64,000 nt of DNA from an uncultured Gammaproteobacteria bacterium (GTDB taxonomy: Bacteria > Patescibacteriota > Patescibacteriia > UBA11705): the NCBI GenBank assembly GCA_964413735.1, contig CAYPSS010000001.1:56237-120236 (forward strand), written 5' to 3'. The position numbers and the translations under genes were made by a program. Shown piece by piece: positions 1,897-40,757 of the stretch. Numbering within the stretch: the first letter of the stretch is position 1; every line of letters begins with the position of its first letter. Below the pieces are notes generated by a model. The model saw only the letters and a program-made list of their open reading frames with translations, did no database searches and was not told where the DNA came from.

Positions 1897-1900
1897 TTTT

Positions 1901-6021: not shown

Positions 6022-6233
6022 AAGAGTTGTTTATTAAACCTAAAAAATGAAAAGTTTTGACCTTTTCCATGATGTAATCATAACAAATTTTATAGATTTT
6101 TTCAACTATACCTGATCTCGTTGGACCTCTACCCTGAATCACTCAAAACCGTCACTGAAATTTAAAATGTGCATAACACCATTGAAAAAAAATAATGAGT
6201 CTGATAAGGTTATATTAAGTTAAAAATTATTTT

Positions 6234-7250: not shown

Positions 7251-7276
7251 TTTGGGGGTAAAACCCCATTACATAG

Positions 7277-7312
7277 AACTTCTCGTCTCCATGCTTGGCG
7301 AGAAGTTTTTAA
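7277..7312 (+). terminator. Rho-independent terminator after PGI/PMI gene
   Basis: Hairpin aacttctcg...cgagaagtt followed by TTTTT. Confidence 0.55.
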
Positions 7313-7348
7313 ATTGGAGATTTAAGACAAATTTGCTATGATGAAATT

Positions 7349-12262: not shown

Positions 12263-12658
12263 TTATCGTCCGGCAGTTCCGGTTGCTTCTGTTAATCTTG
12301 AAACCACAAAGTTGGTAATCCCATAAGCGGCCAAAATAATCACCAAACCAATAATGGCGTTGGTTAAATATTTTTTACCTTGTTCCACCCCATCTTTTTC
12401 ACCACCGGCAGTCATATACTTAAACCCGCCAATAATAATCATAATCACCATCACCACGCCCAAAAAACTTAAAATAATATTAATGATTCGACCAATAATT
12501 ACCGGCAAATCATCTGATGGAGTTTCCCCTGGACCATAAATTCCTTCACCGGTATTTACTAAAGTCCCTTGAATGTCCACTTGGGCCAAAACGCTTGGCG
12601 CCACAAGCAAGAGACAAACCAGCAACCCAAGGAAATACCCGAAAAGTTTTGTCTTCAT
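12263..12658 (-). CDS. Small secreted two-TM pilin-like protein (TrbC/VirB2-type T4SS pilin-like family), paralog 1
   Basis: 131 aa; Sec signal peptide, short variable region, conserved C-terminal block IIGRIINIILSFLGVVMVIMIIIGGFKYMTAGGEKD...AIIGLVIILAAYGITNFVVSRL shared by 8 tandem paralogs. Confidence 0.5.
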   Translation of the reverse strand: MKTKLFGYFLGLLVCLLLVAPSVLAQVDIQGTLVNTGEGIYGPGETPSDDLPVIIGRIINIILSFLGVVMVIMIIIGGFKYMTAGGEKDGVEQGKKYLTNAIIGLVIILAAYGITNFVVSRLTEATGTAGR

Positions 12659-12691
12659 AATTTTATTATGTTAATTATTTATATTTAATTA

Positions 12692-13087
12692 TTAATCAAT
12701 TAAATAAGCTGACTCCATTAATCGTCTTACCACAAATGAGGTAATAGAATAAGCCGTCACACAAATTACCAGGCCGATAATCGCATTGGTAATGGTTTTC
12801 TTGGCTTCCTCTAATTTGGTTTTATCCCCTTCGGCCGTCATATATTTCACCCCGGCCAAAATAATGAGCACCATCATCACTACCGCTAAAACCGCCAAAA
12901 CAATGGAAATAATTCGACCAATCACGGCCGGCAAATACGGCGCGTCCGCATGTCCGTAACTTTCATTACCAAAAGTACCCATGGCATTACCCGCTTGTTC
13001 CTGCAAAGAACTGGCCGCCAAAACTTCCCCGCCTAGAAAAAGCGCGAAAATTAATAGCAAAGTAATTAATATTTTTTTATTAAACAT
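12692..13087 (-). CDS. Pilin-like two-TM protein, paralog 2
   Basis: 131 aa; same architecture (VIGRIISIVLAVLAVVMMVLIILAGVKYMTAEGDKTKLEEAKK...IIGLVICVTAYSITSFVVRRL). Confidence 0.5.
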   Translation of the reverse strand: MFNKKILITLLLIFALFLGGEVLAASSLQEQAGNAMGTFGNESYGHADAPYLPAVIGRIISIVLAVLAVVMMVLIILAGVKYMTAEGDKTKLEEAKKTITNAIIGLVICVTAYSITSFVVRRLMESAYLID

Positions 13088-13303
13088 ATGATTAAAAAAG
13101 TAATAAGCAAGAAAGTGCTAAGCGAGATAAGTAAGACAAGTGAGACAAGTAAAACGAGTGAAACGAGTATTAAAAGGGGTTAGGGATAAGGGATTAGGGG
13201 GGCTAGAAAATGAGGGAATAAAAATAAAAACCATATTCTCACTCTGAACTTGTTTCAGAGTCTGTGCTATGATCTGGACAAATAAAAAGATCTATTACAG
13301 TGT
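13088..13303. repeat. Modular intergenic repeat block (gtaag-rich block, G-tract block, 29-bp palindromic element)
   Basis: gtaagacaagtg/aagcaagaaagt motifs at 13100-13170 also found at 21962-22035 and 24150-24215; G4-type motif ggggttagggataagggattaggggggg at 13176-13202; ttctcactctgaacttgtttcagagtctg at 13237-13265 identical to 24428-24456. Confidence 0.7.
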
Positions 13304-13699
13304 CTATGAGGTCGGGGAAATTAAAGCATTAATCAAAATTTGATTCATTACATAACTGGAAATTGAATACGCGAGCAAAATTATAATAAGGCCAATAATA
13401 CCGTTTTTGATCCAATCCTTAGCCTTTTCCACTTCATCCTTTTTTCCACCGGCCGTTAAATATTTATAACCACCCATTAAAATAATCACCGTTAAAACAA
13501 CACCGGAAACCACCAATACACCATTCACGATCCGTCCAATCACCACCAATAAATTTGACTCTGTTCCCTCGCCATAAACCGCTTCACCGCCCTGTTGTAG
13601 ATTTTGATTAGCGGTTTCAAAAACATTTTCCGCTTGAACCGACGTAAAAGCGCCAAACAATATTATAGTTAAGATCAAAAAAACTAATACTTTATTCAT
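13304..13699 (-). CDS. Pilin-like two-TM protein, paralog 3
   Basis: 131 aa; conserved block VIGRIVNGVLVVSGVVLTVIILMGGYKYLTAGGKKDEVEKAK. Confidence 0.5.
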   Translation of the reverse strand: MNKVLVFLILTIILFGAFTSVQAENVFETANQNLQQGGEAVYGEGTESNLLVVIGRIVNGVLVVSGVVLTVIILMGGYKYLTAGGKKDEVEKAKDWIKNGIIGLIIILLAYSISSYVMNQILINALISPTS

Positions 13700-13709
13700 A
13701 TTGCTTTAA

Positions 13710-14090
13710 TTATTGTTGAACATTTATTATCAATTGAATCACTTGAGTGGAAATCGCGTAAGCCAAACCAATAATAATTACGCCGATAATACTGTTGGTT
13801 AAATAAGCTTTGGCCTTGGTAATATTCTTAGAATCTTCACCGGCGAGCATATATAAGACTCCACCATAGATTATTAAAATCATTAAAACAAAACCAACCA
13901 AAGCCAGTACCCCATTAATAATGCGTCCCACTAACAATGTCAAATTGCCAGAGGCTCCAACATCAAATCCGGAAGCATCAGCAGTTGCATTTAATCCGGT
14001 GTCACTGGGTTCAAAAGCAATTACTGTCGTGATTCCCAGAGTAAAAACTATAATTAGTAATAAGAAACTGAATACAAATATTTTTTTCAT
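13710..14090 (-). CDS. Pilin-like two-TM protein, paralog 4
   Basis: 126 aa; conserved block LVGRIINGVLALVGFVLMILIIYGGVLYMLAGEDSKNITKAK. Confidence 0.5.
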   Translation of the reverse strand: MKKIFVFSFLLLIIVFTLGITTVIAFEPSDTGLNATADASGFDVGASGNLTLLVGRIINGVLALVGFVLMILIIYGGVLYMLAGEDSKNITKAKAYLTNSIIGVIIIGLAYAISTQVIQLIINVQQ

Positions 14091-14095
14091 AAATT

Positions 14096-14524
14096 TTATT
14101 TCATGGTTTGTGATCCCAAAAGATTAATAACATAATTGGCAATCCCATAACTCAAAGCAATCAAACCAAGGCCCAGCGCCGCATAAATAATGTAATTTCG
14201 TCCGGTACTAACCTTGTCCGAATCGCCACCGGCAAGCATCCAAGTTAATCCGCCATATAAAACCAACACAAAGAAAATCACGCCGACCATGGATAAAATC
14301 GCTTTGATAATATCACCAATTTTATTTTGTACCAATACTTGACCGTAAGCACCTTCCGAACCTTCTGGTAATAAATTGGCCGTCTTGGCGGTTTCGTCCA
14401 ACCCTTCGGTAATAGACTTAGCCGATACCATAAAACCGAAAAAAAACATTACTAAAATGGCGATTATTGTAATAATTTTTATTTTCATAATTGCTTCCGC
14501 TGAATTCAAAAAATTTAAATTCAC
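14096..14524 (-). CDS. Pilin-like two-TM protein, paralog 5
   Basis: 142 aa; conserved block IGDIIKAILSMVGVIFFVLVLYGGLTWMLAGGDSDKVSTGRN. Confidence 0.45.
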   Translation of the reverse strand: MNLNFLNSAEAIMKIKIITIIAILVMFFFGFMVSAKSITEGLDETAKTANLLPEGSEGAYGQVLVQNKIGDIIKAILSMVGVIFFVLVLYGGLTWMLAGGDSDKVSTGRNYIIYAALGLGLIALSYGIANYVINLLGSQTMK

Positions 14525-14562
14525 CGGAAGCAGCGGATATCAATCCGCTACTTTATAAAAAA

Positions 14563-14937
14563 CTAAGTACCCATGGTTGCTTCCATCAATCGACTGATAA
14601 CAAAAGTGGTGATAGCGTAAGCACTGAGAATAATCACCAAGCCGATAATACCGGAAATAATGTATTTTCGCGCATTATCAATTTTTTCTTGCGCTCCACC
14701 AGCCGTCATATACTTGAAACCACCGATCAAAATAATTACTACCGCCACAACGCCCAAAAAGCCCAAAGCCACATTGATAATGGCACCAACTGTTGTTCGA
14801 ATGTCTTTTGAACCTAGGATCAACTCATTTCCAATGGCATCAGTTCCAAATGGATCGTTTATTTGCGCCATAACCGGCATTACCAAAGAAAACGCAAAAA
14901 CCGCCACCACCAGAAACATTGTTAATTTTTTTAACAT
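14563..14937 (-). CDS. Pilin-like two-TM protein, paralog 6
   Basis: 124 aa; conserved block VGAIINVALGFLGVVAVVIILIGGFKYMTAGGAQEKIDNARK. Confidence 0.5.
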   Translation of the reverse strand: MLKKLTMFLVVAVFAFSLVMPVMAQINDPFGTDAIGNELILGSKDIRTTVGAIINVALGFLGVVAVVIILIGGFKYMTAGGAQEKIDNARKYIISGIIGLVIILSAYAITTFVISRLMEATMGT

Positions 14938-28067: not shown

Positions 28068-28508
28068 ATGCTGAAGTATATGATGGCAATGGTATTGGGA
28101 TATTTGATCCACAAGCATGGTGATCAGGTTACCAAGTATTGGAACAATCCGGAAGAGCTGGAAAAGTACTTTGAAAAGATCTTGAATGATGAAAAGCTGT
28201 CGGCTTTGAAGGAACGATTTGTGAAGGCTTTCAAGCAGGGAACGGATGCGCTGGAAGCGGAATTCAAGAAGTTCTTGGATGAGATGGCAGCCAAGGCCAC
28301 GGAAACTCCGCCGGAGGAGCCCGCTCCGCCTCCGGCTCCGGTGGTCATGCCCACGGAAAACTGCCAGAAGTGTGGGCAAGAGAATGCCATCGGCTCGCCC
28401 GCTTGTTCCAAGTGCGGTGGTCCGGTGACGTCGATTGCCGAATTGAAGGACATGTTGGAAGAGATCAAGAAGATTCCGCGCAAGCGTGGGCGGAAGCCTC
28501 CCAAGTAA
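28068..28508 (+). CDS. Small GC-rich protein: N-terminal hydrophobic helix, helical region, Pro-rich linker, CxxC-x11-CxxC zinc ribbon, basic AT-hook-like tail (RKRGRKPPK)
   Basis: 146 aa; coding region far GC-richer than genome; strong promoter, SD and terminator; ORFs on opposite strand are GC artefacts. Confidence 0.55.
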   Translation: MLKYMMAMVLGYLIHKHGDQVTKYWNNPEELEKYFEKILNDEKLSALKERFVKAFKQGTDALEAEFKKFLDEMAAKATETPPEEPAPPPAPVVMPTENCQKCGQENAIGSPACSKCGGPVTSIAELKDMLEEIKKIPRKRGRKPPK

Positions 28509-28566
28509 CGAAAAACGGTACGCAATGCGTACCGCTTTTTTGATATAGAAGATTACTCAAAACATT
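28476..28566. repeat. Direct repeat copy A (about 88 bp; 3' end of gene 28068..28508 plus terminator)
   Basis: About 85-90 percent identical to 30202-30292. Confidence 0.75.
28511..28541. terminator. Bidirectional rho-independent terminator (perfect 9-bp stem cggtacgca/tgcgtaccg flanked by A-run and T-run)
   Basis: gaaaaacggtacgcaatgcgtaccgcttttttg; a near-identical copy occurs at 30236-30267. Confidence 0.65.
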
Positions 28567-28601
28567 TAATAATAACTTTTTTTCTTTACTTTTTATTTTT
28601 A

Positions 28602-29060
28602 TTATTCAGTTTTTTGCTTGATCATTTCAGCGGCAGCATAATTAAAAACACCGATAACTGAAGTATCTATTCGTAATTTAGTATTCTGTGAATAATACCA
28701 GAAACACTCATATTTTTTATCAATTTCAATTTGAATATTTTTTTTCATAAAAACATAATTACCAAAACCACCACTATAATGATCAAATAACTTTGAATTT
28801 TTTTCAATCTTTTCTACTGTGGCATTATAAGACTCTTGATCAATAGACACATTAGTTTCATAAGTAATTAAACTATCTTCATTTTCCAACATATAGATAA
28901 TAACTCCACCTTCATTGCCCATAGCACCCAAAGGAGAAATTTCACAGTAAATTACTTTTTCAAGGTCAATGGAATTCAAGTTTTCTGTAGTAATAATTAT
29001 ACTATTTAGAAAAACTATTGGTTCATTTAATACCCCCCTATATACTGTTTTTGGACTCAT
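28602..29060 (-). CDS. Hypothetical protein (152 aa), AT-rich insert cargo
   Basis: Intact ORF inside the repeat-bounded insert; no recognisable motifs. Confidence 0.4.
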   Translation of the reverse strand: MSPKTVYRGVLNEPIVFLNSIIITTENLNSIDLEKVIYCEISPLGAMGNEGGVIIYMLENEDSLITYETNVSIDQESYNATVEKIEKNSKLFDHYSGGFGNYVFMKKNIQIEIDKKYECFWYYSQNTKLRIDTSVIGVFNYAAAEMIKQKTE

Positions 29061-29096: not shown

Positions 29097-29999
29097 TTAT
29101 TTTTTATAAATACTTAAAAAACCACCAAAGTGTTCCTTGTTAAGATCCTTTCCGAAGGATTCGCCAAGTGCAACCAGCTTTTTGTACTCCAATGTGTCTT
29201 GAATATCTTTTTTGCTATAACGAATTTTGTTTAGATCAATGCTTTGTTTTTTGTTGAACTGAAATTCGGAAAATTTGAGTACTGCATTTCTTTTTTTTGT
29301 TATGATCAAAATATATGAGTTAAGCCCAGAACCATAAGAATTTACCTTATTAATTTTTATCTGGAAATTACTGCCGGCTTTTTCTTTAAGAATATTTTTT
29401 AGGTTTAAAATTTTATTTTTTTCATAGATACGCAAACGAGGTAAGGAAATTTTAGACGACCAAAAACCTTCATCTGTTCTGTCTATATTAATTATTGCAC
29501 GACCGTTAACTTTTAGAATTCTAGAAATTTCCGCGATGGCTCCAAGTTTATTTTCAAAAAAATGAAAAGCATTGGTAGAATATACTAGATCTATTGAGTT
29601 GCTTTTAACTGGAATACGCGTGCAGGCGTTGGCATTAAATAGTTTCGGGACAGATAAACCTTTGGTGTTTATATTGAATTCTTTGGCTATAATAAGAGGA
29701 TTTTTTCTCGCATCCTCCTGTCGTTTTTCTTCATTGTAAAAAATACTTCCTTTCCTTGGTTTTCTGCAAAAATAAATGCCAAACAAAGCTAAACTAACAT
29801 CGTTTTTTGAAAAAATACTACTTAATTCCCATAAAGATCGTCCAACGCCTGAACCTAAATCTAAAATAGATATTTTTTTATTGATCTTTATTTTATTGTC
29901 GATTTCTTTAACCAAATTATAGGATAGAATTTTTTCTACAGTTTTTAATGGACGGCTTATGCTAGGGTGGCTTTTTGTTGGTGGTTTTTCCATATTCAT
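29097..29999 (-). CDS. Class I SAM-dependent methyltransferase
   Basis: 300 aa; motif I ILDLGSGVGRSLWEL, post-II/III region IDLVYSTNAFHFF...ISRILKVNGRAIIN. Confidence 0.65.
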   Translation of the reverse strand: MNMEKPPTKSHPSISRPLKTVEKILSYNLVKEIDNKIKINKKISILDLGSGVGRSLWELSSIFSKNDVSLALFGIYFCRKPRKGSIFYNEEKRQEDARKNPLIIAKEFNINTKGLSVPKLFNANACTRIPVKSNSIDLVYSTNAFHFFENKLGAIAEISRILKVNGRAIINIDRTDEGFWSSKISLPRLRIYEKNKILNLKNILKEKAGSNFQIKINKVNSYGSGLNSYILIITKKRNAVLKFSEFQFNKKQSIDLNKIRYSKKDIQDTLEYKKLVALGESFGKDLNKEHFGGFLSIYKK

Positions 30000-30201
30000 A
30001 ATGTTTTTAATTAAATTATTAACTTGATTAAATCATATCACAAGTTATATTCAATATAAAATAAATTTTAAACTTTCTTTTTATGTTTTTGGTAATCACT
30101 TAGAAAAACACAATAAAATACTTAATATGGTTTAGTTAACTATTTACGCTATGCCATATTAAGAAAAAGGCGTCTATATTGCTTGTGTATAATTTAGTTA
30201 T

Positions 30202-30292
30202 CCCGCACAAGCGTGGGCGGAAGAGTCCCAAGTAACGAAAAACGGTACGCAACGCGTACCGCTTTTTTAATAGAAGAGCTTATTCAAAATGT
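30202..30292. repeat. Direct repeat copy B (degenerate duplicate of gene 28068..28508 3' end and terminator)
   Basis: Retains coding remnant ...PHKRGRKSPK-stop and the cggtacgcaacgcgtaccg hairpin. Confidence 0.75.
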
Positions 30293-30708
30293 TCTATAGT
30301 AATTTTATTCAAATCACCATTAATAATAATCGGCTTCACTGCTTCAATTTCAGTTTTGCAATAAGGCATTTCAGGAATGGGGTTTAACATAAATATTTTT
30401 TGATTCAGAACATGGGCAAAGCCAATTTCCATTAGAGTATTTCCACCAACATAATTTTTTATCCCATTCTTATCAAAATTTAATACCAGCACCGCATCAG
30501 CCCCTTGCATCATTCTCCAAAATTCACGGATAGCGTCCATGTTATTCTTTTGGTGAAGTTTAATAGTTTCAATTTCCTCCTCGGTTTTTCCCACCATTGT
30601 TTTGTGCAAGTCCGTCAAAAAGGCCTCGTGTCCCAATTCCCGAAGTTTTTCGCGGTACTCCAGCATTTGATCTGTAAATTGCATTGATCCAATTATTCCT
30701 ATTCGCAT
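30280..30708 (-). CDS. Nucleoside 2-deoxyribosyltransferase-like protein (PF05014-like Rossmann fold)
   Basis: 142 aa; MRIGIIGSM N-terminus and ADAVLVLNFDKNG...GGNTLMEIGFAHVLNQKIFML matching the D-x-GT-x-E-hGYA catalytic-glutamate block of the NDT family. Confidence 0.45.
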   Translation of the reverse strand: MRIGIIGSMQFTDQMLEYREKLRELGHEAFLTDLHKTMVGKTEEEIETIKLHQKNNMDAIREFWRMMQGADAVLVLNFDKNGIKNYVGGNTLMEIGFAHVLNQKIFMLNPIPEMPYCKTEIEAVKPIIINGDLNKITIEHFE

Positions 30709-30936
30709 AAGAAAGATTTTAAAAAATTTGTAATTTCGCGTAATGTTTTGGTGTATCTAATGTTTCGCGAAGTGTAGGCAAATTTTTGCCTTTTATTTAT
30801 TTTCTTCGATAAATATTATGATTATTTAGTTTCCCAGATTATTCACAAAAATCTGCTTATTTTTATTTAATTTTCCCCCATTTTTGGCGAAGGGTAGAGG
30901 GGTTAGGGATGAATGCCCCGAAGCCAAGACTCCTTA

Positions 30937-31698
30937 TTATAATCTGTTCATCTGATTCAATATTTCATTCGCGAGATCTCGTTTGTCTATTAAATATTCG
31001 TCCCATTTGTTTGATTCTTTTCTCTTTCGTCCGGCAACAAACCCAAGCATTTTTTCGCCTTGTAATTTGTTAGACAATTTCAAAAAATCAGGCGCAGGCA
31101 CAAACCAAACATAATCCCATAAATCGCCTTGCTCTGTATCAAAAAAGCAAAACACCAAAGCCATTGAATATCTATCAACCACACTACTGGCTTTTGCTGT
31201 GGCGGTAAAAATATCGTCAGGGTTATCGCCAAAACGACTTTTGATTTGAATATACATTGTTTTCAAACTTTCTTTTCTTTTCACGATTAAATCAATGCCT
31301 TCGTCATCGGAAATCGGTTTGTAGCAAGAAAGAGTTGTATCGCCGTAAAGTGTAACGAGCTCGGCGATTCTGGCTTCGGCAATGTCTCCTTTTTGTTTTG
31401 AAGAAACATCTTTGGAAATTGTGTATTTCTTTTCTTCTTTTTCCGCTTCTTTTGCTTTTTCTGGTTCTTTGTAGTCGGGATTTAAACCAAAAGTGCTTGG
31501 GGCAGTTTTGATAAATCGAGATTTATCTTTTTTGGAATTTATATCAACGACAAGCTGGGCGTTCATGGTCGCTTCGGGTGTTTTTCCGGCGGTTTTTAGC
31601 CAGCCATGATCCAGCGCAATTTTTGTGATTTCTTTGCTGTGAAGTGGTTTGCTGGCTTCTTTTAAAATTTGATATGCAAGTTCTTTGAATGAGTTCAT
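30937..31698 (-). CDS. HARE-HTH (winged helix) N-terminal domain fused to restriction-endonuclease-like (PD-D/ExK) C-terminal domain
   Basis: 253 aa; N-terminus ELAYQILKEASKPLHSKEITKIALDHGW...RFIKTAPSTFGLNP typical of HARE-HTH; C-terminal D-x(n)-GIDLIVKRK-like D/E-x-K block. Confidence 0.45.
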   Translation of the reverse strand: MNSFKELAYQILKEASKPLHSKEITKIALDHGWLKTAGKTPEATMNAQLVVDINSKKDKSRFIKTAPSTFGLNPDYKEPEKAKEAEKEEKKYTISKDVSSKQKGDIAEARIAELVTLYGDTTLSCYKPISDDEGIDLIVKRKESLKTMYIQIKSRFGDNPDDIFTATAKASSVVDRYSMALVFCFFDTEQGDLWDYVWFVPAPDFLKLSNKLQGEKMLGFVAGRKRKESNKWDEYLIDKRDLANEILNQMNRL

Positions 31699-31699
31699 A

Positions 31700-31857
31700 T
31701 TATTTTTGATAACATTCTATGCAAAGTTTGGTTTGATTTTTGTTTAAACTCGCCAAAAACCGATCCTCGCAAAAATATTCTTCACCTTTAGGAATAATTT
31801 TTTTGCACTTCGTGCAAACGTATTCTTTTCTAGCTTTTTTCTTGACTAAATCCATAT
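31700..31857 (-). CDS. Small zinc-ribbon protein (52 aa; CxxC...C...CxxC), not in supplied ORF track
   Basis: MDLVKKKARKEYVCTKCKKIIPKGEEYFCEDRFLASLNKNQTKLCIECYQK read from minus strand; sits between Res gene and HARE-HTH gene. Confidence 0.35.
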
Positions 31858-34617
31858 TTATTTTAGTAATTGATCGGTAAAGACTTCTTCAAACTTAACT
31901 TCTTCTTTTCTGTTAAACAATGGCAATCCAATCAACGAATATTTTTTACTTTCAGCTTTTAATAAATCGCCAGTCCCGTATTTATCAGTAATTTGCTGTA
32001 AAAATTCTTCTTTCCAGCCCTCCTTGCTTTCTTTAAAACCACCTTCTTTATCAGCAAATTGACCGCCTTTTGGTTCAATAAAAATTTGGTAATAAAGGTT
32101 GTTTTTGTTTCCTTTCAAAAACAACAAAAAGTCCGGCTCAAAACCACGACCTTGCTCAAAGTCATAAATTTTATAAACCTCTTCGTTTCTAAGTAAATAT
32201 ACTTCTTGATATTGTTCTTCCAAATTTCCTATTTTCTTTTTCATAAACTCAAGCAACTCTCTTTCTTCGCTTGTTCCATTAAACCCATTTAGCACATACC
32301 AATTATGCTGTAATAGTTCAGTCTCAAGATTTTTGCTTTCCGGATCAATAAGCACGCTTTTTTCTTTTTCTTCACCAAATAAATCTTCAAAAGAAAAAGA
32401 CTCAAATTTTTCCGTTCCTTTGTGTGGATTGGCAATCTCTTTTAATTTCTTTGTAAATACTTCAAAAAATACAAGCAGCAAGTTTAATTTTTCCTCATTA
32501 CTAATATCATCTAAGCTATTTTTATCTTTTGAAGTAATTATATTGATTTTAAAATTACCAAGAAAATCGCTTGAGAAAATATCATCAACACTATTTAAGC
32601 TTAATTCGGTCTGTAAATTATCAAAACGCAGAAGCGAAAGATCTTTTGTAGCTTTTTTGTTTATGGCTTTGGCTACGATATGTTTTTCAAAATCGCTAAA
32701 TTTTACTGATATTGTTTTCTTATCTTTTTGTTTGCTTTCAGCAAGTAATTCATCTGTGTCTTTGTCTAAAACAACTTGCTGTTCTTTCATTATGAATTCG
32801 CTTGTCGTAAATTCAAAAACAAAATCTTTAGCCAATTCAGCTAAGGTTAATTTTCTTCTTTCCGGATTGTCTATTCTTTCATTTTTCCAAACCTTAATTT
32901 CCTTAAAAAAACCGCTTTGTTTAAAATCTTCCTTTAAGGCAAACTTCTTTATTGTACGGTTATCTTGAATAAACCCTTTATTTTTAAGTTCTCGTTTTAA
33001 TTCATCAAGATAGCGAACGTCATCGTCGCTGTGATAATAAAATTCTTCCAATACTCTCATTGGATTTTCTAAATCGTTATCAAATTTCCGTTTGTTTCTC
33101 TCGTATTCGTTATGATTAAAAGGAAAGTATCTAACTCCGCGTCCAATAAGCTGGATTTCTTGCAGGGTGGCTTGCCCCGCAACTCTTTGCCCGTTTTGGT
33201 GACCTTCATCACGGCCTTCATAAAGCCGAACAATATCAAAAAGATTAAGCACGTCCCAGCCCTCAGTTAAGCGCTTAACGGTAAAAATAGCTCGTATATG
33301 GTTATTTTTATCTTCTAAACTATTTAGTAATTGCTCTTGTTCTTCTGTGGTTTTTTCTTTCGTGGTGGCTTTGTTATCTTTTGAGTTGGTTATAATACAG
33401 TTTCTTTCAGAAAATTCGTCTTTGATGTAATTAACAATATCTCTTATGTTTATCTTTTCGGCTTTAATAAATCCTAGCATTTGTTTAACACGACTTTTGC
33501 CTTGTTCATACACCTTGAATAAACTTGCTTGATCTTCCTTAATACTATTCTCGACATTCTTTAAAAAGGCAAAATCAGTGGCTTGCAAATCAGCGATTAG
33601 TGCTAAAAAATACTCATAATCATTTTTTGATTCTTCAATCAGCTTACTACGAAACAACATTACTGGTTTAAAATTGGCGATATTATTTTTAAGCGCAATT
33701 TGGTGACGATACCAATTAAAAAGCAATGCGAGCAATATTTTTTCTTTTTTATTAAGTGATGTAGAAACTAAGTTTATTTCTTTTGTATATCCGGCTTTTA
33801 GAAAGTCAACGAGCTCAAATTTATAGATAGTTTTTGTCCTGTATTTTTCAACAACGTCGGCATTTTTTGGTATTGTGGCCGTAAATTCAAGCAAAACATT
33901 TCTATTTTCACTATCTTGTGTCTTTTTCCCTTTTCTTAAAATTTTATTTAAGACGGTATTTTCCCAGCTTTTTTCAACATCCTTTTCACTAGCGTTTTCT
34001 TTCAATTCTAAAGGCAAATCCATTTCCTCCTGACCATTTCGTATGGTTGAAGCGTTAAGGTGGTGCGCTTCATCGCCAATCATTACCAAATCTCGCTTTT
34101 GCAATTCACCAAGCGTCACTGAGTTTTCTTTTGCTAAATAAACTGCGTTATGAAGTTTATGAATAGAAGTAAATTTTATCTGTATGTCATCAGTATCATC
34201 AAAAGTTTCTACTTTGCGGATATTGATCGTCTTATCTTCAACGACTATATTTTGACGGAATTCGTATTTTGTATGTATTTTGTTGATAAAGTTGTTTTCC
34301 GTCTTATCAACGATATTGTTTTGATTTACAAAAAATATAAAATGTCGATAACCTTTTTTGTAGTAATACAAAATTAAAGCCGCCATCATCATGGTTTTGC
34401 CCGTTCCGGTTGCCATGTTAAACATCAAATGCGTTGGATCGTTTATATTTTCAACAAATTTTTCTTTTCTTTTCTCAAAAATATCAAAATATTGCATGGC
34501 ATCTTTTTGCCAATACCAAAAATCGTGCTTCAAATTGCTTTTAATATAATCCGGCACTTCATAAGATTCACCAGCAATATCAAGATATGTTTTAATCTTT
34601 TGAAATAATTCTTCCAT
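31858..34617 (-). CDS. res: Type III restriction-modification system endonuclease/helicase subunit (Res)
   Basis: 919 aa; SF2 helicase motifs ATGTGKT (Walker A), IGDEAHH (DEAH), C-terminal endonuclease region; stop/start coupled to Mod. Confidence 0.85.
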   Translation of the reverse strand: MEELFQKIKTYLDIAGESYEVPDYIKSNLKHDFWYWQKDAMQYFDIFEKRKEKFVENINDPTHLMFNMATGTGKTMMMAALILYYYKKGYRHFIFFVNQNNIVDKTENNFINKIHTKYEFRQNIVVEDKTINIRKVETFDDTDDIQIKFTSIHKLHNAVYLAKENSVTLGELQKRDLVMIGDEAHHLNASTIRNGQEEMDLPLELKENASEKDVEKSWENTVLNKILRKGKKTQDSENRNVLLEFTATIPKNADVVEKYRTKTIYKFELVDFLKAGYTKEINLVSTSLNKKEKILLALLFNWYRHQIALKNNIANFKPVMLFRSKLIEESKNDYEYFLALIADLQATDFAFLKNVENSIKEDQASLFKVYEQGKSRVKQMLGFIKAEKINIRDIVNYIKDEFSERNCIITNSKDNKATTKEKTTEEQEQLLNSLEDKNNHIRAIFTVKRLTEGWDVLNLFDIVRLYEGRDEGHQNGQRVAGQATLQEIQLIGRGVRYFPFNHNEYERNKRKFDNDLENPMRVLEEFYYHSDDDVRYLDELKRELKNKGFIQDNRTIKKFALKEDFKQSGFFKEIKVWKNERIDNPERRKLTLAELAKDFVFEFTTSEFIMKEQQVVLDKDTDELLAESKQKDKKTISVKFSDFEKHIVAKAINKKATKDLSLLRFDNLQTELSLNSVDDIFSSDFLGNFKINIITSKDKNSLDDISNEEKLNLLLVFFEVFTKKLKEIANPHKGTEKFESFSFEDLFGEEKEKSVLIDPESKNLETELLQHNWYVLNGFNGTSEERELLEFMKKKIGNLEEQYQEVYLLRNEEVYKIYDFEQGRGFEPDFLLFLKGNKNNLYYQIFIEPKGGQFADKEGGFKESKEGWKEEFLQQITDKYGTGDLLKAESKKYSLIGLPLFNRKEEVKFEEVFTDQLLK

Positions 34618-34619: not shown

Positions 34620-36686
34620 CTATTTTTTGGTATTATAAAATTCTTCACTTAAAGCAATATCTTCTTTGGATAGGTTATATTTTTTGTCCGCACGTTCACT
34701 GAAATTGACATATATTTGATTCATATCAAGCATTTCCACAAACAATTTTTTCTGCTCATTTAAACTAAGCTTTTTAAATCCTTCTTCCTTGATTGTCTTT
34801 TCATTAAATTCTTTTGTTTTGACATTGTAGTTGAAGAAATATCGTTCATAGAGTTCGTCAAAAAGTTTTTCAAGTTCACTTAAACTTTTTGCTTTTAATA
34901 TTTTTTCCTTTGCTTCCTCGTTCCATTTTGCGAGTTCTACGGAAATAAAATTACCGCCACCGTTCCAATTAATCCTTTCTGATATTCCAGTACTATCACC
35001 TTTTAATACATTATTTAATCTAGTTATACTATCATCTTCCCCATAATCTAATTGTTCTATTCCTATATACTGAAAACCTAGCTTGTGAGCAACTGCACAG
35101 GTAGTTCCGGATCCCAAATGATAATCTAAAATAATATCATTATCCGAAAGCCCTAACTTTACAATTCTATCAATAAGCTCTTCGGGTTTTTTTCCACTTT
35201 TAAAACTGACATCTCCTTCAATATCTAGCCTTCCCCATGAGATATCTGTCCATAAGGATCCTATCTCTTCTAATTTATATACCTGACCATCTGCTTTTTT
35301 CGCACTATCCGCAAACCAAACAACTAGAGTTTTATTCCAAATATATTTATTAACTAATTTCCCTTTATCTCGGCCACTTTTAGGTATATATTCATAAGAA
35401 ACTAATTTGTTTTTTCCTTTTATAATTCCATTAATTTTATCCAGAAGAGATGTTTGTGCATTAGTTACCATAAAAATCTTGTCAAAATACTTTTCATAAA
35501 CATCATTGACCGATAAATTTTCATTTTTAATTAAATTATTTACAGTTTCAAAATTGAACTCTGTATGCTCAAATACTTTAATACCATCAATTTCAGTAAT
35601 TAATTTTCTCTTTCCTGCATCCATTAATACTCTTGTATAATAAAAACCAACGCTCTCCTCTTTATGCTTTCTAATATAATCTTCAATAATTGTAGCGTTA
35701 TAAATTGGCTGATAATCGAAGAAATCTTTATTTTTACAATAAAACAAAATAAACTCGCTGTTCTTTTTCATTTTCTTATCTTCACCACCACCGCTGGCAC
35801 CCGAACTAGCTTTAGCTTTAACTGTTATCGTATTTACATAATTTGATGAATGAAAAATATCATCAAGTAAGACCTTTAAGTACGCCAATCCCTCATCAGA
35901 TATTTGAATAAATATCATTCCATCATTTGTTAATAAATCTCTAGCTATTTTTAATCTATCTTTCATAAAAACTAACCAAGTAGAAAGTTTGAAATTTGTA
36001 TTATATGCGAAACTATCACTTGTTTTATTCCCAGTAAAATAATACGGTGGATCAATATAAATTAACTTCACTTTTCCTGTAAATTGCTCCTTAAGGGAAT
36101 GAAGGGCAAGAAGATTATTGCCTTTGATTATTAAATTTTCACGGATTGTGCCGTCTTTGTCGCGTTTTAATTCTTTTACTTTTTCCTCACCTTTAGTGGT
36201 ATATCTCTTCCAATTTACCAAGGCTTTTGGATCTTCGAGTCGGTCAATTTCATCTTTGGCCAAAACTTCATTGAAAAATATTTCATTTCTCTTTTGATCT
36301 TCTTTTGTCATTCCACCTTCAAGCACACAATCTTTGAATGGCCAGTCTAAAACGACCTCATTTCTTTCGGAAAGTAGTTGATTGCCAACTCGAAGTCCGA
36401 TTTTGTTTTGGTATTGTGTGTATGAATTGTCAAGTTTGTTTTCATCAATAAAAAACTTTAATTCATTTTGCTTGAGGACAACAACATCTTTAATTTTGAT
36501 AAAAAATTTCTCTTTTGCTTCTTTATCGCTCAACAGAATTTCAATAAGTTTTTCATCAAGCTTGTCGACCAAATCTTTCAAAAGTGTTTCGTTAAACTCT
36601 TTCGTTTCTTCATTCCACAAACGAGCATCCTTTTTAAGTAAGCCGTATAGTTTAGTTTTAAAATTTTCCATAGTATTTGATTTCAT
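34620..36686 (-). CDS. mod: Type III restriction-modification system DNA methyltransferase subunit (Mod), N6-adenine/N4-cytosine class
   Basis: 688 aa; catalytic motif IV LIYIDPPY, SAM-binding DYHLGSGTT region. Confidence 0.85.
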   Translation of the reverse strand: MKSNTMENFKTKLYGLLKKDARLWNEETKEFNETLLKDLVDKLDEKLIEILLSDKEAKEKFFIKIKDVVVLKQNELKFFIDENKLDNSYTQYQNKIGLRVGNQLLSERNEVVLDWPFKDCVLEGGMTKEDQKRNEIFFNEVLAKDEIDRLEDPKALVNWKRYTTKGEEKVKELKRDKDGTIRENLIIKGNNLLALHSLKEQFTGKVKLIYIDPPYYFTGNKTSDSFAYNTNFKLSTWLVFMKDRLKIARDLLTNDGMIFIQISDEGLAYLKVLLDDIFHSSNYVNTITVKAKASSGASGGGEDKKMKKNSEFILFYCKNKDFFDYQPIYNATIIEDYIRKHKEESVGFYYTRVLMDAGKRKLITEIDGIKVFEHTEFNFETVNNLIKNENLSVNDVYEKYFDKIFMVTNAQTSLLDKINGIIKGKNKLVSYEYIPKSGRDKGKLVNKYIWNKTLVVWFADSAKKADGQVYKLEEIGSLWTDISWGRLDIEGDVSFKSGKKPEELIDRIVKLGLSDNDIILDYHLGSGTTCAVAHKLGFQYIGIEQLDYGEDDSITRLNNVLKGDSTGISERINWNGGGNFISVELAKWNEEAKEKILKAKSLSELEKLFDELYERYFFNYNVKTKEFNEKTIKEEGFKKLSLNEQKKLFVEMLDMNQIYVNFSERADKKYNLSKEDIALSEEFYNTKK

Positions 36687-36920: not shown

Positions 36921-37184
36921 TCACTTCACCGGATCATTCCCACCCTTACTCCACGGATTACACCTCATAATCCGCCAAATCGCCTTAACCCCACCCACAA
37001 TCACCCCATATTTCTCAATCGCCTGATACCCATATTGGGAACAAGTGGGATGAAAACGACAAAAACCATACGGATACCAGGATTTTAAGGGACCGTGGTC
37101 CGGCGATAAGGTTTTCTGATAAATTTTGATTAATTTCAAGACCAGAAAACGCGGATAAAATTTAAAAGTGTTGAATATTTTCAT
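36921..37184 (-). CDS. yidD: Membrane protein insertion efficiency factor YidD
   Basis: 87 aa; LIKIYQKTLSPDHGP...CRFHPTCSQYGYQAIEKYG signature. Confidence 0.85.
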   Translation of the reverse strand: MKIFNTFKFYPRFLVLKLIKIYQKTLSPDHGPLKSWYPYGFCRFHPTCSQYGYQAIEKYGVIVGGVKAIWRIMRCNPWSKGGNDPVK

Positions 37185-37535
37185 TTATTTCACTATTCTT
37201 TTTAATAAAGTTTCTAAATTTCCCTTAATTTGGTCAAATTCCAAAGTTTTGGCTTTTGGTTGCACGACCACCAAAACATCAAAACCCGCCAATGTGGTAA
37301 TTTTTTCTTTGAAAATCTCTCTGATTTGCCGTTTCAATCGATTTCGCACCACCGCTCGATTATCCACCTTGGTATTGATAATAATCCCTAAGCGAAAATT
37401 CGTCTTATCTCCTCTTAATACTTTAATAACAAAAAACGGATCCGAAGCTGATAACCCCTTTTTTAATTTGAAACTTTTACCGAAAAATTCGTCAATTTCC
37501 TTTTTCTTGTTAATGCGATTCTTTGCTTTTAACAT
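37185..37535 (-). CDS. rnpA: Ribonuclease P protein component
   Basis: 116 aa; RLGIIINTKVDNRAVVRNRLKRQIRE conserved RNR motif region; immediately downstream of rpmH. Confidence 0.85.
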   Translation of the reverse strand: MLKAKNRINKKKEIDEFFGKSFKLKKGLSASDPFFVIKVLRGDKTNFRLGIIINTKVDNRAVVRNRLKRQIREIFKEKITTLAGFDVLVVVQPKAKTLEFDQIKGNLETLLKRIVK

Positions 37536-37563
37536 ATATATAATGATACCAAGTTTTATAATT

Positions 37564-37588
37564 CAAAAAAAGTCCCTGGCCGGGACTT
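37564..37588 (-). terminator. Hairpin terminator/attenuator between rpmH and rnpA
   Basis: agtccctggccgggact palindrome with adjacent A/T runs. Confidence 0.4.
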
Positions 37589-37592
37589 TCTT

Positions 37593-37739
37593 TTATCTAT
37601 CAGATGTAGTTAAACTTTTGCGACCGCGAACTCGTCGTCGTTTCAACACTTTGCGGCCGTTTTTCGTACTCATCCGTTCTAAAAAACCGTGTTTCTTGGC
37701 TTTCTTTCTTTTATTTGGCTGATAAGTTCGTTTTGGCAT
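37593..37739 (-). CDS. rpmH: 50S ribosomal protein L34
   Basis: 48 aa [48 protein letters not shown] read on minus strand; absent from the ORF track (shorter than 60 aa); classic rpmH-rnpA-yidD order. Confidence 0.9.
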
Positions 37740-37986
37740 AAAAAAAATTTAATATGAGATTAAGAACATAATACCTTATTATCATTATAATGTCAATAGA
37801 AAGGAATTAAGACACCCAAGCCCCTTGTCAAAAAAATTTTAGGTGTGCTAAAATGGAAAACGAGAGTTATCAACAAGTTATTAACACAATACCAACTTTT
37901 CATTGCTTTACGACAGTTTATCCACAATTGTGTTCGTGTTAAAATAGCATTAAGTTAAATTAAATTAAAAATAAAATACTTTATCT
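37740..37986. promoter_or_regulatory. oriC-proximal region upstream of dnaA with DnaA boxes
   Basis: Perfect DnaA box TTATCCACA at 37918-37926; TTATCAACA at 37867-37875; AT-rich; located between rpmH and dnaA. Confidence 0.6.
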
Positions 37987-39378
37987 ATGGAAGATCGCAA
38001 TCAAGCTCTATGGAACGCCGTGTTGGCGGAAATGGAACTTAGCCTTAGTAAAGCCAGTTTTACCACTTGGCTGAAAAACACTTTTATAGTAAAGAACGAA
38101 GATGGCCGAATTGTTATCGGTGTGCCCAACACCTTTTCTCAGGCCTGGCTCAAACAAAAATACCACCAAAACATTTACAAGATTATCCAAGACAAAAGCG
38201 ACGAACGCATCAAGGAAATCATTTATCGGGTGCAAACCTTGAAAAACTACAAAGAAGAAGTGGAACAATTCAAGAAAAATGCGGTTAAAGAAGCTTGTTT
38301 GGACAGCATCCAAGCCAAACCAACCATTATTGAACCAACTTTTTCCGAAAATAACGGTTTAAACAACAAATATACTTTTGACAGTTTTATTGTGGGCAAA
38401 AACAATGAACTGGCCCACGCCGCCGCTAAGGCCGTGGCCCAAAATCCGGGTTTTACTTATAATCCGCTTTTTATTTATGGCGGAGTGGGACTGGGGAAAA
38501 CCCACTTATCCCAAGCCATTGGTAATGAGGTGACCAGAAATAATCCCAGTAAGAAAATTTTGTATGTTACTTGTGAACAATTTACCAATGATTTTATTTC
38601 TTCCATTCAAAGTGGCGCTCCCGAGAAATTTACCAAGGTTTATCGCACCGCTGATGTACTTATTATTGATGATATCCAATTTTTGACCGGTAAAGAAGGC
38701 ACGCAAGAAGCATTTTTTCATACCTTTAATGATTTACATCAGAAAAACAAACAAATTGTTATTACCTCGGATCGTCCACCCAAAGCCATTGCCACACTGG
38801 AAGATCGTTTATTGTCCCGTTTTGAATGGGGTATGATTGCTGATATTTCACAGCCGGACCTGGAAACCAGAATTGCGATTTTGGAAACCAAATGCAGGGA
38901 AAAAGAGTTTAATTTGGAAAGAGAGATCATCCAATACATTACTATGAATATCCAAAACAATGTCCGCGAATTGGAAGGCGCTTTGAATAAAATTATTGCT
39001 TATTATCAATTGAACAATATTTCTCCCACCATGGAAAATGTCAAAAATATTCTATTTTCCATTTCTTCTTCCAGTCGAAAAAACGATTCTGTCACCATTA
39101 AAAAAGTTTTGGAAACCATCAGCACTTTTTATGAAATTTCCACCGATGAAATTACCGGCAAAAGCCGTGAAAAGCGTTATGCCTTGCCTCGTCAAATTAT
39201 TATGTTTTTAATGCGCGAAGAATTAGGATACTCCTATCCAACAATTGGCGCAGAAATCGGTGGCCGAGATCATACCACCGCGATGCATGCTTATTCGAAA
39301 ATCAGTCGTCAAATAGAAAATGACGAAAAACTCCGCCAAGAATTAAATCTCTTGAAACAACGACTTTATTCTTGTTAA
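37987..39378 (+). CDS. dnaA: Chromosomal replication initiator protein DnaA
   Basis: 463 aa; Walker A GGVGLGKTHL, sensor motifs, C-terminal DNA-binding domain (RDHTTAMHA). Confidence 0.95.
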   Translation: MEDRNQALWNAVLAEMELSLSKASFTTWLKNTFIVKNEDGRIVIGVPNTFSQAWLKQKYHQNIYKIIQDKSDERIKEIIYRVQTLKNYKEEVEQFKKNAVKEACLDSIQAKPTIIEPTFSENNGLNNKYTFDSFIVGKNNELAHAAAKAVAQNPGFTYNPLFIYGGVGLGKTHLSQAIGNEVTRNNPSKKILYVTCEQFTNDFISSIQSGAPEKFTKVYRTADVLIIDDIQFLTGKEGTQEAFFHTFNDLHQKNKQIVITSDRPPKAIATLEDRLLSRFEWGMIADISQPDLETRIAILETKCREKEFNLEREIIQYITMNIQNNVRELEGALNKIIAYYQLNNISPTMENVKNILFSISSSSRKNDSVTIKKVLETISTFYEISTDEITGKSREKRYALPRQIIMFLMREELGYSYPTIGAEIGGRDHTTAMHAYSKISRQIENDEKLRQELNLLKQRLYSC

Positions 39379-39638
39379 TAAAATGTGAACAACTGATAAT
39401 TTTTCGTTTATAAGTTTGGGATTAATCAGAACCCAATGTGCACAAAAAAACAGAAAATAACAACAATATTTATTTTTGCTCATTCACCAACAAGGAGTAA
39501 ACAATGATAATAACAAGTGGTGTTAATAGAATTTCCGCTAATTTAAGAAAGGAAAAGCACTTATCCCAATTATCAACACTATTATTATTGTTATTTCTTA
39601 TATATATATTGTGTTTTAATTAATATAATAGGCCTTCT
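39379..39638. promoter_or_regulatory. dnaA-dnaN intergenic AT-rich region with DnaA-box-like sites (possible DUE / second oriC half)
   Basis: TTATCCCAA 39561-39569 and TTATCAACA 39571-39579; long A/T tract 39590-39640. Confidence 0.4.
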
Positions 39639-40757
39639 ATGAAAATAACTTGTACCCAAGAAAATCTCAATCAAGGATTAAACATTACCGGTCATTTGGT
39701 AAATAAAAGTGTTAATCTCCCAATCTTAAACAATCTTTTAATTGAAGCCAAAGAAGGTCAAATTAAATTACTTTCCACTAATTTGGAAATCGGGATCAGT
39801 ACTTTGATCCGAGGAAAAATTGAACAACAAGGAGTGTTTACCGTTGATTCAAAACTTTTGGCTGATTATGTGTCTTTGCTACCAAAAGATAATGTGGAAA
39901 TGGAATTGGTCAAAGATGATTTTCTAAATGTTAAATGCAAAAATAATAATACCAGAATAAAGGGTATCCCGGCGGATGATTTTCCCGTTATTCCGGAAAT
40001 TGAAAAAAAAGATCCTTTTGTTGTTTCCATTAAAGAGCTCAAAATGGCGATCTCTCAAGTTTTGTTTGCGGTTTCCAATAATGATACTCGACCGGAGATT
40101 AGTGGCGTTTTGATGGCATTTGGGGACAATAAATTGATTTTGGTTGGGACCGACAGTTATCGTTTAGCGGAAAAGAAAATTTCCGCTTCTGGCTCCAGTA
40201 AACAAATGCAAGTGATTGTCCCGTTAAAAACTTTGCAAGAGTTGTTGCGTATTTTAAGTGCCATGAAGGAAGATTCGGAATTGGAAAATCTGGATATTTA
40301 TATTTCCGATAATCAAATTTTGTTTGTCATTGATGGTATTGAAATGATTTCTCGTTTGGTTGAGGGAAATTATCCGGATTACAAACAAATTATTCCAACC
40401 GACGCTAAAACTAAAACCGAGGTTAATACCAATGAGTTTGTCAAAATCATTAAAACCACTGCTTTGTTTTCCAAGGTGGGGATCTTTGATATTAAATTGG
40501 AATTTTTACCGGAAAACAAAAGTATTGTTGTTTCTTCCAATAATATTCAGGTTGGTGAAAGTGTTTCCGAGTTGGAAGTTGGATTTTCCGGCGAAAAAAA
40601 CAACACGACTTTAAACTATCGATTTTTGATTGATGGTTTATCAAACATTGGGAGCAGTGAAATTACCTTAGACGTAATTGATAATAATGTCCCTTGTGTG
40701 ATGAAGCCTAAGGGCGATGATAGCTATTTGTATATTATTATGCCGATCAAACAATAG
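39639..40757 (+). CDS. dnaN: DNA polymerase III beta subunit (sliding clamp)
   Basis: 372 aa; three-domain clamp layout, N-terminus MKITCTQENLNQGL, follows dnaA. Confidence 0.9.
   Translation: MKITCTQENLNQGLNITGHLVNKSVNLPILNNLLIEAKEGQIKLLSTNLEIGISTLIRGKIEQQGVFTVDSKLLADYVSLLPKDNVEMELVKDDFLNVKCKNNNTRIKGIPADDFPVIPEIEKKDPFVVSIKELKMAISQVLFAVSNNDTRPEISGVLMAFGDNKLILVGTDSYRLAEKKISASGSSKQMQVIVPLKTLQELLRILSAMKEDSELENLDIYISDNQILFVIDGIEMISRLVEGNYPDYKQIIPTDAKTKTEVNTNEFVKIIKTTALFSKVGIFDIKLEFLPENKSIVVSSNNIQVGESVSELEVGFSGEKNNTTLNYRFLIDGLSNIGSSEITLDVIDNNVPCVMKPKGDDSYLYIIMPIKQ

Follow-up and report, generated by a model that had tools for sequence, protein, structure and literature searches.

Gene Organization of the Locus

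The analysis concerns a stretch of 64,000 nucleotides (nt) of contig CAYPSS010000001.1 (assembly GCA_964413735.1, positions 56,237–120,236 of the forward strand; hereafter the window), and within it a string of minus-strand genes that encode a Type III restriction-modification (R-M) system, a small zinc-ribbon protein (ZNR), a HARE-HTH protein with a predicted PD-(D/E)XK nuclease domain (HARE) and a protein resembling nucleoside 2-deoxyribosyltransferase (NDT-like). A preliminary description of the window had grouped the last three as a candidate three-gene module, and all three of its minus-strand open reading frames (ORFs; 30280–30708, 30937–31698 and 31700–31855) were recovered, the translation of the last being identical to the peptide first quoted for it. 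The features of the locus are as follows.

34620–36686, minus strand: Mod, Type III R-M methyltransferase of 688 amino acids (aa), first gene of the operon (Pfam, PADLOC and motifs)
31858–34617, minus strand: Res, Type III R-M restriction subunit of 919 aa (Pfam, PADLOC and motifs)
31700–31855, minus strand: ZNR, gene for a C4 zinc-ribbon protein (CxxC-27-CxxC) of 51 aa (ORF, homologs and dN/dS)
30937–31698, minus strand: HARE, HARE-HTH plus PD-(D/E)XK protein of 253 aa, predicted auxiliary endonuclease (Pfam and invariant residues)
30280–30708, minus strand: protein of 142 aa with a predicted NDT/YtoQ/DNPH1 fold, outside the operon unit (AlphaFold2 model and Foldseek)
30243–30261, no strand assigned: bidirectional terminator-like hairpin CGGTACGCAACGCGTACCG, with an 8-bp stem containing six GC pairs and T/A runs on both sides

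Mod, Res, ZNR and HARE form a four-gene defence operon, Mod-Res-ZNR-HARE, in a Patescibacteria-type genome; confidence is high both in this gene arrangement and in leaving the NDT-like gene out of the operon. The genes are closely packed, with 2 nt between the Mod stop and the Res start codons, 2 nt between Res and ZNR (TAA-AT-ATG) and 1 nt between ZNR and HARE (TAA-T-ATG). The small ORF had initially been described as encoding 52 aa and as lying 1 bp from Res, a spacing taken to suggest translational coupling with that gene; the ORF, its peptide and the tight packing stand, but the product has 51 residues, the distance to Res is 2 nt and the tightest coupling would be with HARE. The gap between HARE and the NDT-like gene is 228 nt, in agreement with the earlier figure of about 230 bp. 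This spacer contains a promoter-like site at 30848–30821, shows no structured RNA (folding z = −0.6; no match in Rfam) and has no detected minus-strand terminator. The hairpin at 30243–30261, located just 3′ of the NDT-like gene, closes the minus-strand gene string, and a second copy of it is found at 28516–28534.

The operon starts 234 nt downstream of yidD-rnpA, which lie 5′ of Mod, and dnaA-dnaN are situated just past these genes on the opposite strand in divergent orientation (window 36921–40757); the defence island therefore adjoins the presumed replication origin region. The GC content of the R-M genes is 30–32%, against 35.7% for the whole window.

The Type III Restriction-Modification Genes

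Mod matched the Pfam families N6_N4_Mtase (2.4e-31) and TypeIII_RM_meth (1.9e-16) and the PADLOC model MTase_III (1.4e-193), and DPPY and FxGxG-type motifs are visible in its translation. Res matched Pfam ResIII (4.9e-26) and, over residues 15–915, PADLOC REase_III (1.3e-106); its helicase motifs and its C-terminal PD...ExK nuclease motif are intact (MATGTGKT, GDEAHH and GFEPDF...IEPKG), and it is 79–83% identical to the Res proteins of L059–L061, the closest relatives of the operon. With both subunits recognized by family and motif, Mod and Res constitute a complete Type III R-M system, in which Mod would place N6-adenine-type methylation on self DNA and the Res helicase-nuclease would cleave unmarked DNA. 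The labels first given to Res, to the HARE-HTH nuclease and to the NDT-like fold proved correct according to Pfam, PADLOC, Foldseek and homolog matches.

The HARE-HTH Nuclease

The HARE-HTH domain (PF05066) was detected at residues 3–72 with 78.4 bits (cutoff 25.9; E = 5e-22), covering positions 2–68 of the 71 in the profile. The profile was matched by all 40 homologs, and the AlphaFold2 predicted local distance difference test (pLDDT) score is 80–89 over this domain. The putative PD-(D/E)XK domain spans about residues 99–200, with a predicted secondary structure of one helix (100–118) followed by three strands (123–126, 134–141 and 147–154). The match of the window copy to PDDEXK_5 (PF11645) is below the cutoff (22.4 versus 26.1 bits; E = 1e-4), and the same family was matched in 40 of the 40 aligned homologs, with a best value of 9.4e-7. 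Residues E108, D131, D132, D136, Q151 and K153 are invariant in all 40 sequences. Searches of NCBIfam and PHROGs gave nothing significant for HARE. When the HARE profile was compared with Escherichia coli Mrr by hhalign, only the catalytic core was aligned (DDEGIDL..YIQIKS versus GDGGIDG..YVQAKR), with a probability of 0.8%, which is not significant; homology by this route was rejected, and the resemblance is kept as an analogy at the level of motifs.

More than 925 HARE homologs were found, and the best 120 clusters (P0009–P0128) are 75–93% identical. Synonymous divergence is saturated (dS 0.7 to above 3) at a dN of 0.04–0.24, indicating strong purifying selection. The metagenome-assembled genomes (MAGs) to which the proteins are assigned span many phyla, Pacearchaeota and Thorarchaeota among them, and some of these assignments may be binning errors. 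Two divergent HARE clades were distinguished, which are about 55% identical in the HTH and barely alignable in the C-terminal domain, with paired ZNRs that are about 80% identical. DNA homology between the window HARE gene and other loci begins and ends at the start and stop codons; only in L012 does it extend about 30 nt further 3′. A search of 2.9 million viral contigs yielded a single HARE locus and no ZNR; the gene is therefore regarded as cellular rather than phage-borne, and a phage or anti-defence origin was dropped.

Genomic Neighbourhoods of HARE and ZNR

The contexts of the ZNR and HARE homologs were scored by tblastn and Pfam. The loci examined numbered 67, of which 54 contained HARE and/or ZNR and 13 contained an NDT-like gene. 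Immediately upstream of HARE, at distances of −14 to +24 nt, 25 genome loci carry mostly R-M or other defence genes. Among these neighbours are HsdS, HsdR, YgjP, three Res, D12, N6_N4, N6_Mtase and Eco57I-type methyltransferases, two AlwI, a PLD-SNF2 helicase, AAA_15, Fic and HEPN_AbiV, with Shedu nearby. In L012, the closest relative, HARE stands between an Eco57I-type system and Shedu. Whatever the type of the preceding R-M system, the HARE protein is about 80% identical.

ZNR was found in 10 distinct contexts, listed here.

Window: Mod-Res-ZNR-HARE
L059–L061: the same Mod-Res-ZNR-HARE operon in metagenome contigs, with no NDT-like gene
L001–L004, L016, L054–L057: a second Type III family
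L027: a third Type III family
L005–L008, L058: Type I, after hsdR
L052: Type I, after hsdS
L009–L011, L062: Type II, with two methylases and an NmeDI-like enzyme
L063: cargo related to that of L062
L053 and L064: no HARE, transposases nearby

The gene 5′ of ZNR encodes an R-M protein in each of the nine contexts that show it, and Res, HsdR, HsdS and the D12 methyltransferase precede it alike. On the 3′ side, the HARE-HTH/PDDEXK_5 nuclease gene follows in eight of the 10 contexts, separated by 1 nt, or by 7 nt in L009; the 1-nt spacing is kept in the window, L001, L006 and L060, and the ZNR-HARE pair stands behind Type III (L001), Type I (L005–L008, L052) and Type II (L009, L062, L063) genes. 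The specific link between ZNR and Res proposed in the preliminary description is thus not upheld, the most constant neighbour of ZNR being HARE. As a separate observation, a non-homologous 58-aa zinc-ribbon ORF (CPHC...CPEC) occurs between the AAA_15 ATPase and HARE genes of L015 (9816–9992), an arrangement analogous to ZNR-HARE that involves an unrelated protein.

The Small Zinc-Ribbon Gene

ZNR has homologs in eight clusters with 72–82% identity, and C14, C17, C45 and C48 are invariant in their alignment. Among five independent DNA copies, synonymous differences range from 0.26 to 0.82 and non-synonymous differences from 0.03 to 0.24, giving a dN/dS of 0.05–0.21 where it is computable, with synonymous sites near saturation. 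ZNR is therefore a genuine coding gene under strong purifying selection, as its first description had supposed; lack of conservation or stop variation, either of which would have spoken for a non-coding ORF, was not encountered, since the copies are intact except for one. The exception, in L027 (5694–5828), stops before the second CxxC, with an intact HARE downstream; either this copy is decaying or the sequence contains an error.

When 1.84 billion representatives were searched with a ZNR profile, one close cluster came up along with about 40 small zinc-ribbon proteins of more distant relationship, and the ZNR-like proteins have in common the pattern KAR..H.C..C...I..GE.YY.E.RFL.SL...K.C..CY. 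The family has no match in Pfam, NCBIfam, PADLOC or the Protein Data Bank (PDB). Its best match in PHROGs, phrog_7314 of unknown function, is not significant (7.5e-4). A Pfam scan of 32 wider ZNR-like members gave scattered generic zinc-finger matches and no family, and the distant matches L065 and L066, which lie in one high-GC contig, are uninformative. The protein is small and basic, and no HTH was recognized in it by Pfam or NCBIfam.

Elsewhere in the window, a plus-strand gene at 28068–28508 encodes a 146-aa protein with a C-terminal zinc ribbon (CQKC...CSKC), a basic tail and weak matches to Zn_Ribbon_1/DZR; the 3′ end of this gene overlaps the repeated terminator element.

The NDT-Like Gene

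Homologs of the NDT-like protein number more than 2,798, the best 120 of which (P0129–P0248) are 80–91% identical. The protein scored below the threshold of the nucleoside 2-deoxyribosyltransferase family (PF05014; 15.7 versus 28.8 bits, E = 0.017), so membership of this family is not assigned; it had no Pfam family above threshold, no NCBIfam match, nothing significant in PHROGs and no sequence relative in the PDB. Its AlphaFold2 model has a pLDDT of 87.9, and the top Foldseek matches in the PDB are NDT (6evs, 2e-4), YtoQ (8of6), 7o62, other NDTs and DNPH1, with E values from 2e-4 to 1e-2 and template modelling (TM) scores of 0.48–0.60, accompanied by weak TIR/ThsB matches. E94 of the GGNTLMEIGFA motif, in a G-x-x-x-x-E-x-G context, is invariant in 37 sequences. 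These matches support the assignment of the model to the NDT/YtoQ/DNPH1 fold. The likeness to the NDT/YtoQ/DNPH1 (Rcl) superfamily lies in the fold matches and the invariant Glu; the NDT-like protein differs in its score below the PF05014 threshold, in its modest TM-scores and in the absence of defence-gene linkage.

The sampled contexts of the NDT-like homologs are of a housekeeping kind, namely between murA and mreB (murA-X-mreB), beside a NUDIX gene and near infB/rbfA, and DNA similarity among the copies is limited to the coding region. None of the 13 NDT-like loci contains HARE, ZNR or R-M genes, and none of the 54 HARE/ZNR loci, including L059–L061, contains the NDT-like gene. The conserved three-gene neighbourhood originally envisaged accordingly found no backing, with zero co-occurrence in the 67 loci; the NDT-like gene is an independent, widely conserved gene and a neighbour by accident. 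The probable product is an N-glycoside enzyme acting on nucleosides or nucleotides, which would serve salvage in organisms that depend on nucleotide salvage.

Inverted Repeats, Recombinases and Mosaicism in Relatives

Inverted repeats that are 99–100% complementary, with unique sequence beyond both arms, enclose the complete HTH_3-[cargo]-ZNR-HARE unit in three relatives (L001, L009 and L062); a fourth repeat, in L055, may be an assembly palindrome. The repeats and the large serine recombinase genes (Resolvase+Recombinase+Zn_ribbon_recom) found just outside one repeat arm are located as follows, in the coordinates of each locus.

L001: inverted repeat of 198 nt, 87–284 and 5528–5725
L009: inverted repeat of 100 nt, 114–213 and 4313–4412
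L062: inverted repeat of 312 nt, 2243–2554 and 6905–7216
L055: perfect inverted repeat of 1701 nt reaching the locus end, 1–1701 and 6942–8642
L055: serine recombinase, 7379–8905
L002: serine recombinase, 266–1789, minus strand
L062: serine recombinase, 477–2000, minus strand
L034: serine recombinase, 662–2185, minus strand
L003: serine recombinase, 6111–7529

The inner ends of the repeats lie about 135–190 nt before HTH_3 and about 26–34 nt after HARE, and the arm sequence is homologous between units of different cargo. In L002 the recombinase lies on the other side of the R-M unit from where it is found in L003. Inverted repeats of 134 nt, separated by 1483 nt, flank the recombinase gene and take in its own 3′ coding end. 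This placement, together with the 134-nt repeats, suggests invertible segments.

Comparison of the units revealed a mosaic structure. L001 4577–5724 (Type III) and L006 6169–7346 (Type I) are 92% identical in DNA over a segment that starts about 10 nt 5′ of ZNR and takes in HARE and the repeat arm, with no identity further upstream; L062 2928–6151 and L063 1530–4748 have the Type II cargo and ZNR in common and diverge 14 nt into HARE; and the window (31685–31859) and L009 (3384–3558) have only ZNR in common. R-M cargo, ZNR and HARE have thus been exchanged as separate blocks, with breakpoints at the borders of ZNR. HTH_3 is 92% identical between L001 (Type III) and L062 (Type II). In the surroundings of the window operon, no inverted repeats, recombinase or HTH_3 gene were found.

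Comparison with Known Systems

Fusions of HARE-HTH with restriction endonuclease domains in prokaryotic R-M, Dnd and bacteriophage exclusion (BREX) neighbourhoods were reportedly described by Aravind & Iyer 2012. The clade studied here has the same predicted two-domain architecture, the same place downstream of N6-adenine modification/restriction genes and the same predicted role of a modification-discriminating auxiliary or backup nuclease; it differs in its extreme conservation (75–93% identity across hundreds of clusters), its occurrence mainly in Patescibacteria and DPANN-type MAGs, and the presence of a dedicated gene for a 51-aa zinc ribbon ahead of HARE in a minority of its loci. Proteins in which HARE-HTH is fused to restriction endonuclease domains have been assigned to N6-adenine R-M systems (PMC4738411). 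Those encoded behind Dnd genes have been described as discriminating between modification states (PMC10853773), and in BREX loci such proteins are listed with the auxiliary or backup effectors (PMC12839542). In the literature searched, which did not cover Aravind & Iyer 2012, no mention was found of ZNR ahead of a HARE nuclease. The HARE nuclease is thus of a kind already described computationally, and its dedicated zinc-ribbon companion is a modest new variant.

Mrr of E. coli K-12, encoded in the hsd-mrr-mcrBC immigration control region, has, as is predicted for HARE, an N-terminal winged-helix reader and a C-terminal PD-(D/E)XK domain with a D...QxK site, and its gene likewise lies beside a classical R-M operon, mrr adjoining hsdR of hsdRMS. 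The two differ in that the reader of HARE is HARE-HTH rather than Mrr_N, its best nuclease family is PDDEXK_5 rather than Mrr_cat, and the HARE gene is co-oriented with the R-M genes, which it abuts or overlaps, whereas mrr is divergently transcribed. The winged-helix-nuclease Type IV enzymes of the DpnI and HhiV4I family, which sense N6-methyladenine (6mA) in 6mApT, follow the same concept of a winged-helix-type modification sensor fused to a nuclease; HARE-HTH has an extra helix (PMC11037411), and 6mApT sensing would be self-toxic beside an N6-adenine methylase.

Proposed Function and Alternatives

With confidence only slightly above even, HARE is interpreted as an independent, Mrr-like, modification-sensing backup nuclease carried on a Type III R-M operon, with ZNR as its coupled accessory. 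The last gene of the operon would encode a stand-alone auxiliary ("backup") endonuclease, whose N-terminal HARE-HTH winged helix would read the state of the DNA and whose C-terminal PD-(D/E)XK domain, with a D...QxK site as in Mrr, would cut. Judged by analogy, modification-dependent cleavage of a Type IV-like kind is the most likely activity of the nuclease, which would attack foreign DNA whose modifications evade classical R-M. Termination-reinitiation would couple translation of ZNR to that of the R-M genes before it and the nuclease gene after it, and the small protein would be an optional accessory that most plausibly helps the nuclease by binding DNA or by modulating activity; this translationally coupled role is the weakest link of the proposal. 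Because HARE remains about 80% identical behind R-M systems of any type and specificity, it would not rely on the recognition sequence of its partner or on a bespoke protein contact, and this conservation, the nuclease motifs that Res and HsdR themselves possess and the intact D...QxK site of HARE together favour an independent, Mrr-like nuclease.

Several observations weigh against this interpretation. The ligand of HARE-HTH is disputed between 6mA and modified cytosine (PMC11037411), and a 6mA-dependent cutter beside an N6-adenine methylase would be self-toxic. The AlphaFold2 model of the nuclease domain, built from the 40-sequence alignment, is unusable (pLDDT below 50), a consequence of the roughly 80% identity shared by all available homologs; a Foldseek search of the PDB with the HARE model returned nothing below E = 0.8, sequence and profile searches of the PDB found no solved relative of the family, and none of HARE, ZNR and the NDT-like protein is covered by a PADLOC model. 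The conservation of HARE (dN about 0.13, dS saturated) is unusual for a nuclease engaged in an arms race. As for the accessory, ZNR occurs without HARE in L053 and L064, and it is present in only two of the 27 genome HARE loci, one of these copies being truncated, so that about 90% of HARE loci lack it. The HAREs linked to ZNR are scattered over the HARE tree and have no discriminating columns or signature; a separate clade or signature residues were sought and not found. Given this rarity and the lack of a co-varying signature, a direct ZNR-HARE interaction is unproven, and ZNR is therefore best described as a facultative insert between the R-M operon and HARE.

The preliminary description had likened ZNR to the controller or antitoxin-like partners of defence systems, and as the controller or antitoxin of the HARE nuclease or of Res it would form an addiction-like module stabilizing the R-M island. 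The small, basic product, the strong purifying selection, the 1-nt ZNR-HARE spacing (window, L001, L006 and L060) and the HARE gene that follows in eight of 10 contexts are consistent with such a role. An antitoxin gene, however, should be obligate, and about 25 of the 27 genomic HARE loci encode a catalytically intact HARE with no ZNR, L027 retains HARE beside a truncated ZNR, the ZNR-positive HAREs are polyphyletic with no discriminating columns, and ZNR has neither an HTH nor a PADLOC match. The controller (C) proteins of R-M systems are likewise encoded by small genes inside the operon, but they are HTH_3 proteins encoded at its 5′ end, whereas the ZNR gene, at the 3′ end, specifies a C4 zinc ribbon; the controller-like gene, where present, is a separate 5′ HTH_3 gene (the window gave no match to the L001 HTH_3 protein in tblastn at E up to 1). 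A controller or antitoxin function is thus considered unlikely, and ZNR is read as a facultative add-on rather than an antitoxin or obligate partner. Another proposal is that HARE, with ZNR, is a subunit or guard of the R-M system, acting either as an extra cleavage subunit or as a PrrC-like effector upon phage inhibition. HARE is placed near-constantly at the 3′ end of R-M operons, where its start codon overlaps or adjoins the preceding stop codon, ZNR could serve as an adaptor, and there is a precedent in prrC, which is located within the EcoprrI hsd locus. Res and HsdR, however, have intact nuclease motifs of their own, and a HARE of about 80% identity is found behind Type I, IIS, IIG and III systems, solitary methylases, Fic, AbiV, AAA_15 and Ltp, which makes a specific protein-protein fit to each implausible; the subunit or guard role is rated as rather unlikely.

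The structures seen in the relatives raise the further possibility, considered unlikely, that HARE, ZNR and the 5′ HTH_3 gene are the backbone of a mobile or invertible R-M cassette, of which the window holds a stripped-down copy; the nuclease and ZNR would then have a role in exchange, maintenance or homing instead of phage restriction. ZNR and HARE, joined in fuller copies by HTH_3 and the serine recombinase, would then be the bookends of a Patescibacteria platform swapping Type I, II and III cargo, an equally unlikely proposition. The cargo would be swapped between the long inverted repeats, the unit might also invert, and the ZNR gene would be a junction or recombination hot spot, or its product a cofactor of exchange; the reduced window copy has no recombinase. 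The repeat-bounded units of L001, L009 and L062, the adjacent recombinase on opposite sides in L002 and L003, the breakpoints exactly at the ZNR borders (L001/L006, L062/L063 and window/L009) and the HTH_3 conserved at 92% across Type III and Type II units (L001 and L062) are in line with this. It is opposed by the lack of recombinase, HTH_3 and flanking inverted repeats not only in the window but also in most HARE loci, by the possibility that the 1701-nt repeat of L055 is an assembly palindrome and by the fact that no homing-type target is known. A single system of NDT-like protein, HARE and ZNR, for example one coupling base excision or exchange to cleavage, is highly improbable. The genes are adjacent on the same strand with no detected minus-strand terminator between HARE and the NDT-like gene, NDT/TIR-type folds are used in some defence systems, and weak TIR/ThsB matches appeared among the Foldseek results; yet there is no co-occurrence in the 67 loci, the closest operon relatives (L059–L061) lack the NDT-like gene, its homologs have murA and mreB on either side, a NUDIX gene as neighbour or infB close by, and the 228-nt spacer has a promoter-like site at 30848–30821.

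Other Features of the Window

A direct repeat of about 70–110 nt, 84% identical between its copies at 28473–28582 and 30200–30309, contains the bidirectional terminator hairpin CGGTACGCAAYGCGTACCG and brackets two genes, one for a 152-aa protein of no family (28602–29060) and one for a 300-aa class I S-adenosylmethionine-dependent methyltransferase (29097–29999); this pattern of repeat and hairpin occurs nowhere else in the window. On the minus strand at 12263–14937, a tandem array of six paralogous genes encodes proteins of 124–142 aa, all of which contain a signal peptide and a pair of hydrophobic helices. The one member tested matched Pfam T4SS_pilin at 8e-12.

Implications

The three-gene module originally proposed dissolves into an operon of a known kind and an unrelated neighbour. 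Patescibacteria (the candidate phyla radiation, CPR) mostly do not possess CRISPR and depend on R-M systems (PMC12455944), and a conserved HARE nuclease carried on R-M operons of every type is a candidate for a general second line of defence in these organisms. The zinc-ribbon partner and the mosaic, repeat-bounded R-M units of the relatives hint at how such islands are assembled. In Patescibacteria, the NDT-like proteins would be well suited to curation as a new family of NDT/YtoQ-fold enzymes. In addition, the HARE nuclease would provide a clean experimental handle on what HARE-HTH reads, a domain that is also present in the human ASXL proteins.

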